Below, piece by piece: positions 48,389 through 49,218 of a DNA stretch of 64,000 nt. Both the position numbers and the translations under genes were made by a program. The stretch lies in contig ML978121.1 in assembly GCA_010015805.1 (NCBI GenBank), forward strand, positions 2,604,001 to 2,668,000, read 5' to 3'. Numbering within the stretch: position 1 is the stretch's first letter; each line of letters starts with the position of its first letter. The DNA is from Rhizodiscina lignyota (lineage: Eukaryota). The notes beneath the pieces are model-generated. The model ran no database searches. It saw nothing but the letters and a program-made list of their open reading frames with translations, and had not been told where the DNA came from.

Positions 48389-49218
48389 TCAAGCCCTCAC
48401 AGGTTCGAAAGGCTCGACAATTGGATCACGCCTGACTTTCTTACCCTCCAAGTCTTCATACCCAATAGCTGGACCATGTGGGTCAATAGGGTCACGCTTG
48501 ACCTTCTTGCCTTCTAAATCCTCATACCCAATAGCTGGTCCATGAGGGTCGATTGGGTCGCGCTTGACCTTNNNNNNNNNNNNNNNNNNNNNNNNNNNNN
48601 NNNNNNNNNNNNNNNNNNNNNNNNNNNNNNNNNNNNNNNNNNNNNNNNNNNNNNNNNNNNNNNNNNNNNNNNNNNNNNNNNNNNNNNNNNNNNNNNNNNN
48701 NNNNNNNNNNNGGTCGATAGGATCACGCTTGACTTTCTTGTCTTCTAAATCTTCATAGCCAATTGCTGGTCCATGAGGGTCGATTGGGTCGCGCTTGACC
48801 TTCTTGACTTCAAGGTCTTCGTATCCAATAGCAGGGCCATGAGGGTCGATGGGATCACGCTTGACCTTCTTGACTTCAAGGTCTTCGTATCCAATAGCAG
48901 GGCCATGAGGGTCGATGGGATCACGCTTGACCTTCTTGACTTCAAGGTCTTCGTATCCAATAGCAGGGCCATGAGGGTCGATGGGATCACGCTTGACCTT
49001 CTTGTCTTCTAAATCTTCGTAGCCGATGGCAGGGCCATGGGGATCGATGGGATCCCGCCTTGCGAGTCCTCCGTCCTATTTCATCAAGTAAAATCAGCTT
49101 CCTAGATCTCTCAAGAGCCACCTTTTGATCATTCCTATCTTACCTGGGGATTAATTGGCTTGGCAAAAGCAAAGCCTCCGGCGAGTGCCAAAACTGACAC
49201 AATCTGCTCGAAACGCAT
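48389..49218 (-). CDS. Kex2-processed repeat protein (KEP), candidate dikaritin RiPP precursor
   Basis: Exon 1 (49218-49144) is MRFEQIVSVLALAGGFAFAKPINPQ, a signal peptide. A 68-nt intron follows at 49143-49076 (GTAAGA..CTGAT..TAG). Exon 2 is DGGLARR, then tandem DPIDPHGPAIGYEDLE(D/V/G)KKVKR, ending DPIVEPFEPVRA*. The gene spans an N-gap. Confidence 0.92.
48428..49054 (-). repeat. 66-bp coding tandem repeat: 7 complete units visible plus units lost in the gap
   Basis: Units at 49054-48989, 48988-48923, 48922-48857, 48856-48791 and 48790-48725, then a partial unit and the gap, then 48559-48494 and 48493-48428. Confidence 0.97.
48572..48711. other. Assembly gap (140 N) inside the repeat array
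   Basis: Run of N flanked on both sides by the 66-bp repeat. Confidence 1.

Follow-up and report, generated by a model that had tools for sequence, protein, structure and literature searches.

An unannotated multi-core peptide precursor gene next to a UstYa/DUF3328 oxidase gene in Rhizodiscina lignyota: a probable minimal dikaritin-type locus

Results

A gene encoding a Kex2-processed repeat protein (KEP; hereafter the precursor) was recognized on the minus strand of a 64,000-nucleotide stretch of the Rhizodiscina lignyota genome (NCBI GenBank assembly GCA_010015805.1, contig ML978121.1, positions 2,604,001 to 2,668,000 of the forward strand; this whole stretch is henceforth called the window, and all positions are counted from its first letter). 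The gene has two exons, and its next gene upstream on the same strand encodes an oxidase of the UstYa/DUF3328 family, with the oxidase stop at 50606 lying 1.39 kb upstream of the precursor ATG at 49218 (Table 1). Together, the two genes probably form a minimal dikaritin-type (UstYa-dependent) locus for a fungal peptide that is made by the ribosome and modified after translation (RiPP), i.e., an unannotated multi-core precursor with an adjacent copper oxidase gene.

Table 1 Features of the precursor and oxidase locus and of neighboring genes, in window positions
Feature	Position	Strand	Details
Precursor gene (KEP), two exons	48389..49218	-	ATG at 49218 to stop TGA at 48391-48389
Exon 1, MRFEQIVSVLALAGGFAFAKPINPQ	49144..49218	-	signal-peptide-like, from translation and hydropathy
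Intron, 68 nt, phase 0	49076..49143	-	5' GTAAGA, 3' ATAG
Exon 2: pro-region DGGLARR, array, tail DPIVEPFEPVRA, stop	48389..49075	-	228-codon stop-free frame
Array of 22-residue units DPIDPHGPAIGYEDLE[D/V/G]KKV[K/R]R	48428..49054	-	repeat finder and translation
Seven complete units	48989-49054, 48923-48988, 48857-48922, 48791-48856, 48725-48790, 48494-48559, 48428-48493	-	
Run of 140 N inside the array	48572..48711	.	47 codons covered, frame kept; either an assembly gap or masked sequence
TATATAA, possible TATA box	49362..49368	-	144-150 nt upstream of the ATG, read by eye
UstYa/DUF3328 oxidase gene, four exons (51572-51338, 51284-51123, 51068-50871, 50796-50606)	50606..51572	-	Pfam PF11807
Pepsin-like aspartic protease gene, signal-like start MYAIFLLFSFGVTFAAS	52010..53319	+	Pfam PF00026 on three open reading frame pieces
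Acyl_transf_3 membrane acyltransferase open reading frame, 569 codons	46278..47987	-	Pfam PF01757, E 7.8e-19

The signal-like character of exon 1 was judged by hand from Arg2, its one basic residue, from a hydrophobic stretch (hydropathy of up to 2.3 in 11-residue windows), and from the A-F-A before Lys. The intron carries a branch-like CTGAT at intron position 47, 21 nt before its end, and its length is normal in this genome, as the introns of the neighboring annotated UstYa gene measure 53, 54, and 74 nt. No Met codon occurs in the exon-2 frame, so that the repeat frame can be reached only via exon 1 and the intron, and the default open reading frame (ORF) track (ATG/GTG/TTG starts) over 48389-49218 lists ten ORFs of at least 30 amino acids, with 0/10 in the exon-2 frame. 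A preliminary description of this region had held that the track shows only wrong-frame ORFs and that the true frame is entered through an intron. Both statements agree with the gene model obtained here, in which a signal-like exon 1 is joined via a canonical phase-0 intron to an exon 2 free of Met codons. Precursors of fungal RiPPs of this type are short, repetitive, and interrupted by introns, and they are often missed by gene predictors. The query of sequencing runs returned one matching run and no RNA run; its one contig, aligned to 48990-49420, was continuous through the intron and the upstream region with 0 differences. Being uninterrupted through the intron, this contig is DNA-like and possibly the window's own source, i.e., it does not provide independent support. 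Scanning for bacterial promoters and terminators gave background-level results, which are irrelevant in a fungus.

Tandem Repeats Finder detected the repeats, with a period of 66 nt (22 codons), as one row of 5.3 copies at 90% matches (48712-49058) and a second of 2.3 copies at 84% (48418-48571); among the nine rows returned for the whole window, these form the sole long array of their kind. The two rows are separated by the N run, the only one of the window. Residues 1-16 of the unit, DPIDPHGPAIGYEDLE, are identical in 7/7 visible complete units. The residue at position 17 varies among D, V, and G, and the K at position 21 is replaced by R in the last unit only; the dibasic ends are KR in six of these units and RR in one, exactly as given in the preliminary description, and the pro-region ends in RR. 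Near-identical repeats between KR/RR/KK sites, by which KEPs are defined in the available text of PMC6339444, were thus found. Fourteen codons of the N run would complete the broken unit, and the remaining 33 are not a multiple of 22; the N run may hence be an estimated gap, and seven units are the visible minimum. A repeat-collapsed assembly gap would explain the odd length of the N run as well as the fact that the gene was never called.

Nucleotide variation between the units was found at 19 of the 22 codon positions, with a change of residue at only two of them. Compared with the unit consensus, 24 of the 28 distinct changes are synonymous in the exon-2 frame (expected synonymous share of all possible single changes: 21.7%), and four or fewer non-synonymous changes were reached in 0/100,000 random placements. 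Pairwise values between units ranged from 0 to 1.13 for synonymous (pS) and from 0 to 0.058 for non-synonymous (pN) divergence. The 28 changes were also scored, as a control, in each of the remaining five frames, where 19 were synonymous in the antisense frame with shared wobble positions and 1, 1, 1, and 2 in the others; the consensus unit carries a stop in all five of these frames. Purifying selection on the exon-2 frame, which had been claimed on the grounds of synonymous codon variation, is supported by these counts. Since the silent sites have diverged while the peptide is unchanged, the units are old enough for silent divergence, and the encoded peptide has been retained.

Relatives were sought by an exhaustive phmmer search of protein collections, which yielded 21 matches at E ≤0.001, all of which were inspected. 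The sole credible relative among the 21 is P0002 (KAL8921428.1; 181 aa, E 1.2e-20, 47% identity), a hypothetical protein from a metagenome-assembled genome of Pyrenodesmia sp., a lichen-forming Lecanoromycete and hence a member of a fungal class other than that of Rhizodiscina lignyota. P0002 is clearly a KEP; behind a signal-like start it has five KR-separated units, each reading DPQDPDGRGSGYQTT[A/S]LKR directly after a KR. The two proteins have in common the signal-like start, units that begin with DPxDPxGxxxGY immediately behind KR, and a truncated last unit, and the residues D1, P2, D4, P5, G7, G11, and Y12 as well as KR are invariant in every unit of both. They differ in unit length (22 residues in the precursor, 19 in P0002), in the tail (EDLExKKVKR in the precursor, the neutral QTT[A/S]LKR in P0002; 10 and 7 residues, respectively, after Tyr including KR), and in the unit positions 6 (His in the precursor, Asp in P0002) and 10 (Ile in the precursor, Ser in P0002).

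In this comparison, the conserved block behaves as a 12-mer, DPxDPxGxxxGY, that would extend from the kexin cut to Tyr and be succeeded by a variable follower, and the retention of Tyr12 in P0002 indicates that Tyr is under constraint across two fungal classes. The comparison with homologous precursors proposed in the preliminary description was thereby run on one relative; it delimited a conserved block but did not reproduce the proposed boundary between DPID as leader and PHGPAIGY as core, as D1, P2, D4, and P5 are as invariant in P0002 as G7, G11, and Y12. The proposal that the acidic tail serves as a follower fits its lack of conservation in P0002. Regarding the residue that might be crosslinked, the case for Tyr was strengthened by the invariance of Tyr12 in P0002, with a chemistry that is still conjectural, whereas His as a required crosslink residue was weakened by the Asp found at position 6 of P0002.

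The other 20 of the 21 phmmer matches were rejected because they are periodic proteins with no relation to the precursor, e.g., leucine-rich-repeat-like proteins and translations of bacterial repeat elements. Among these, P0015 (E 8.5e-5) shares IDPHGP with the unit, but its repeats lack kexin sites, and it was treated as a chance match. P0015 is a 265-aa signal-peptide protein with repeats containing IDPHGPVEPVV and APHGPVVIDEP, loosely like DPIVEPFEPV in the precursor tail. When the complete exon-2 frame (N as X) was used as the query of a word-indexed protein search, 0/8000 candidates scored, and a profile search with the window piece and P0002 returned P0002 alone. As no protein with these units was found in public protein collections, the precursor appears to be unannotated, while the oxidase is annotated. 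Pfam models gave nothing above chance on the precursor, and its best score in the ESM Atlas was 0.80, below the 0.9 that this tool takes as meaningful. One ESM Atlas row, at 0.76, corresponds to an MF_alpha cluster and is a lead only. Scanning of metagenomes with the precursor alignment yielded 94 pattern matches, of which 0 were confirmed. PHGPAIGY had no match in full-text literature, and the unit motifs were absent from the supplements of PMC7329392, PMC6339444, PMC12048977, and PMC9632046 (one unrelated KRDP string was found), a weak negative as these texts are possibly incomplete. A 2025 survey of lichen RiPP clusters found, as far as its available text goes, no conserved repeated precursor in the clans studied (PMC12048977); P0002, or the DPxDPxGxxxGY it shares with the precursor, may be the first repeated-core candidate for lichen fungi.

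Protein families were assigned by a Pfam scan of stop-to-stop ORF pieces (n = 253, i.e., 42 + 111 + 100; at least 60 aa at 36-64 kb and at least 100 aa at 1-34 kb), in which PF11807 matched two minus-strand pieces of the oxidase gene (50609-50905, E 2.9e-16; 50836-51111, E 1.9e-8) and no scanned piece between the oxidase and the precursor had a match. The whole oxidase matches PF11807 at E 1.1e-40 (140.2 bits, gathering score 25; the match spans positions 9-218 of the 220 in the profile), and its spliced translation is identical, letter for letter, to P0023, listed as hypothetical protein NA57DRAFT_70820 of the Dothideomycete Rhizodiscina lignyota, which was found by searching with the last exon. 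The product of 261 aa contains HSLHC at 167-171 and HIDHC at 197-201, i.e., the HxxHC(x)nHxxHC motif of the UstYa family (as defined in the available text of PMC12435403), a putative hydrophobic helix at approximately 42-61 (the top 19-residue hydropathy windows start at 42-43, 1.9), and further Cys residues at 211, 239, 255, and 260. That study describes CctR as an O2-dependent, disulfide-linked dimer with one membrane-spanning helix (residues 38-59), a domain in the lumen, and a binuclear copper site formed by HxxHC(x)nHxxHC, and the cyclase AprY is reported there to behave like CctR in being copper- and O2-dependent (PMC12435403). The motif of the oxidase matches that described for the UstYa family, its putative helix and further Cys residues would fit this description as well, and use of copper and O2 is predicted for it. 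Searching PDB sequences with the oxidase gave only five chance-level matches (E 0.36-0.78), and a metagenome scan gave 28 pattern matches with 0 confirmed. Complex prediction for two oxidase lumenal domains and two precursor units returned scores of 0.03 and 0.02, the mark being 0.34, in a run that had no controls.

Discussion

In the working definition given in the available text of PMC9632046, a dikaritin locus consists of a DUF3328 gene near a signal-peptide gene with kexin-separated tandem repeats of at least 10 aa. Here, the DUF3328 neighbor is present, the kexin-separated repeats have 22 residues, and the signal peptide was judged by hand; with the UstYa gene adjoining the repeat precursor, the locus qualifies as a dikaritin locus in the sense of that definition. 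The analogy to dikaritins drawn in the preliminary description thereby gains a physical basis, namely the intact adjacent UstYa/DUF3328 gene that it had not cited. In a survey of KEPs, a DUF3328 gene was found within 15 genes for 1758/7878 KEPs (22%), with the count peaking at the adjacent position, and for the repeats of DUF3328-associated KEPs a Tyr was reported in 65.6% (PMC7329392, available text). As the case of asperipin-2a indicates, a single UstY homologue can suffice with no tyrosinase present (PMC6514808, PMC12048977, both in part).

For a locus of this kind, the signal peptide would bring the pre-pro-protein into the endoplasmic reticulum, and the membrane-anchored UstYa oxidase would modify each unit oxidatively in the secretory lumen, most likely by a crosslink from the side chain of the invariant Tyr12. 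The partner of Tyr12 could be the C-H of a nearby residue, e.g., Ile10 (i-2), cf. the Tyr-Ile i/i+2 pair of ustiloxin and phomopsin, or else the new N-terminus, as proposed for epichloecyclins; given Ser at position 10 in P0002, the Ile10-Tyr12 pairing is one option among others. Cleavage by Kex2 after RR and KR might then free nine or so copies, whose acidic, non-conserved tail would be trimmed by exopeptidases (K/R by a Kex1-type enzyme and possibly Asp-Pro by one of Ste13 type), perhaps with participation of the neighboring secreted aspartic protease, and a small cyclic peptide from DPIDPHGPAIGY would be secreted.

Several points weigh against the assignment to the dikaritins. Splicing and expression are what we infer from the sequence, the middle of the precursor is hidden under N, and a single credible relative of the precursor was found. 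The five-gene definition of dikaritin clusters (Ding et al., as quoted in the available text of PMC12048977) calls for several DUF3328 genes together with a tyrosinase and a methyltransferase; in the 253 ORF pieces, Pfam matched neither of the latter two, only one DUF3328 gene was found, and the single P450 match (26024-27472) lies approximately 21 kb away. DUF3328 enzymes also occur in non-ribosomal and polyketide pathways (PMC12048977, in part), so that adjacency is not proof. In addition, KR followed by Asp-Pro at the start of a unit is a Ste13-type XP signature, which the available text of PMC6339444 describes as typical of linear alpha-pheromone-like KEPs and as absent from ustiloxin-type and epichloecyclin precursors.

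This Asp-Pro start is the main internal argument for a plain KEP, from which unmodified, linear, acidic peptides of approximately 20 residues (signal- or hormone-like) would be released while the UstYa neighbor acts on something else. Such starts are linked to linear secreted peptides (PMC6339444, in part), 78% of the catalogued KEPs have no DUF3328 partner (PMC7329392, in part), and no other tailoring genes were seen in the scanned pieces of the window. The UstYa gene is, however, the immediate same-strand neighbor, i.e., it occupies the position where the DUF3328 count peaks in the same survey, and the invariant Tyr suits the substrate preference of the UstYa family; we regard the plain KEP as an unlikely explanation, though one of some weight. 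A KEP whose units start with an XP dipeptide behind KR is likewise what an alpha-type sex pheromone precursor would show (PMC6339444, in part), and PHGPAIG loosely resembles the Pleosporales motif PYG[L/M]P[I/V]G (PMC6339444; 4/7 positions by our own count). No MF_alpha Pfam match was obtained at E ≤1, though, the unit has neither a Cys pair nor Trp nor an exact pheromone motif (two-Cys type or PYG[L/M]P[I/V]G), and with 22 residues and a strongly acidic tail it departs from such peptides; P0002 keeps DPxDPxGxxxGY and not a pheromone motif. DUF3328 neighbors are, moreover, nearly absent for KEPs annotated as mating factors or pheromones (0/227 and 3/216 in the available text of PMC7329392), and a pheromone precursor is considered highly improbable.

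An array that is untranscribed or decaying, or a secreted repeat protein with a structural role and no processing to bioactive peptides, would account for the missing annotation of the locus, for the lack of a match in public protein collections, and for the N run that breaks the assembly inside the array. The strong synonymous excess, the intact state of all visible dibasic sites, the stop-free frame of 228 codons, and the intact start codon, signal-like peptide, and splice signals speak against this, and such genes are commonly missed by predictors, while an assembly gap would block a gene call; there is accordingly little to recommend a dead gene, which we hold to be improbable. The dikaritin-type reading, in which the oxidase acts on the units of the precursor, is considered the probable one.

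Among known systems, the asperipin-2a locus of Aspergillus flavus (precursor aprA, single UstY homologue aprY, a transporter, and a reductase) resembles the present one in having a multi-core KEP with a signal peptide (signal-like start here), KR-separated Tyr repeats, a single adjacent DUF3328 gene, and no tyrosinase (PMC6514808, PMC12048977, both in part). The asperipin-2a core FYYTGY is unrelated to DPIDPHGPAIGY, and unlike in asperipin-2a there is one Tyr per unit of the precursor, so that no more than one ring could be based on Tyr. Neither a transporter nor a reductase was seen beside the precursor and oxidase genes. The epichloecyclin locus comprises the precursor gene gigA, the DUF3328 gene gigB, the SET methyltransferase gene gigC, and kexB. 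In epichloecyclins as in the precursor, a conserved core begins right behind the kexin site and has an invariant Tyr at or close to its end, with a follower after it (PMC10540207, in part), and their cyclization is described as requiring the DUF3328 protein GigB and reportedly joins Tyr to the first residue (PMC10540207, in part). Their units are similar in size (27 aa, compared with 22 aa in the precursor), whereas their cores have 8-9 residues where the precursor has a conserved 12-mer, and the sequences are not similar. The characters of the GigA family (a core with a conserved Lys, gigC, and kexB) were not found: the 12-mer has no Lys, and no SET or peptidase S8 match was obtained in the scanned window pieces.

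With ustiloxin and phomopsin, the precursor shares a start that is a signal peptide or resembles one, a repeated core with KR sites, and UstYa-family oxidases (PMC6514808, PMC7329392, both in part), as well as Tyr and Ile two residues apart (YAIG and YVIP in ustiloxin and phomopsin, as given in the available texts; IGY here). The ustiloxin and phomopsin clusters are described in these texts as needing a tyrosinase as well as two to five DUF3328 genes and as carrying methyltransferases and further tailoring genes; no such set was found here, and the ustiloxin core is flanked by ED and KR (PMC6514808, in part), whereas Tyr of the precursor stands ten residues before KR. In its layout, the precursor thus appears to resemble the epichloecyclins more than ustiloxin.

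DPxDPxGxxxGY is a previously unlisted core motif in a known, well-populated class; with well over a thousand precursor-oxidase pairs catalogued, the locus adds to this class and not a new principle to it. The oxidase is in the public record, and no protein matching its presumed substrate gene was found there. As a small two-gene locus (three if the protease belongs to it), it offers a route to a new cyclic peptide via heterologous expression, and it is suited to studying the choice of substrate by a single UstYa copper oxidase. A bolder view would take DPxDPxGxxxGY as a new fungal RiPP family that is arranged core-first and follower-last, has a much larger ring than the epichloecyclins, formed from Tyr12 to the N-terminus or to an invariant Pro or Asp by a single UstYa oxidase, and is shared by a wood-inhabiting Dothideomycete and a lichen Lecanoromycete; we consider this doubtful.

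Other genes in the window

The aspartic protease gene contains the active-site motifs DSG and DTG and points away from the UstYa gene, their ATGs standing 437 nt apart. Its product might be co-regulated and act in trimming, and the gene is listed as a candidate member of the locus only; which proteases perform the trimming of dikaritin cores is described as not known in the available text of PMC6514808. Immediately downstream of the precursor, in the same orientation, lies the acyltransferase ORF, which is likewise a possible member of the locus. Other Pfam matches in the window seem unrelated to the locus, i.e., a GH5 cellulase, a sugar transporter, HET, annexin, Cdc37, an ABC transporter, a glycosyltransferase, the P450 mentioned above, HeLo, DHHC, PRISE, a homeobox protein, an amino-acid permease, a Zn2Cys6 factor, and a mitochondrial carrier. 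The HET domain frame (5956-8529, plus strand, E 1e-30) and the HeLo domain frame (28740-29990, minus strand, E 1.9e-32) represent genes of the fungal heterokaryon-incompatibility or cell-death type and are unrelated to the precursor. Two regulator genes could control the locus, with no link seen for either: the Zn2Cys6/Fungal_trans factor (58244-60018, plus strand), approximately 9 kb from the precursor, and the homeobox KN gene (44131-45201, plus strand), approximately 3 kb from it.

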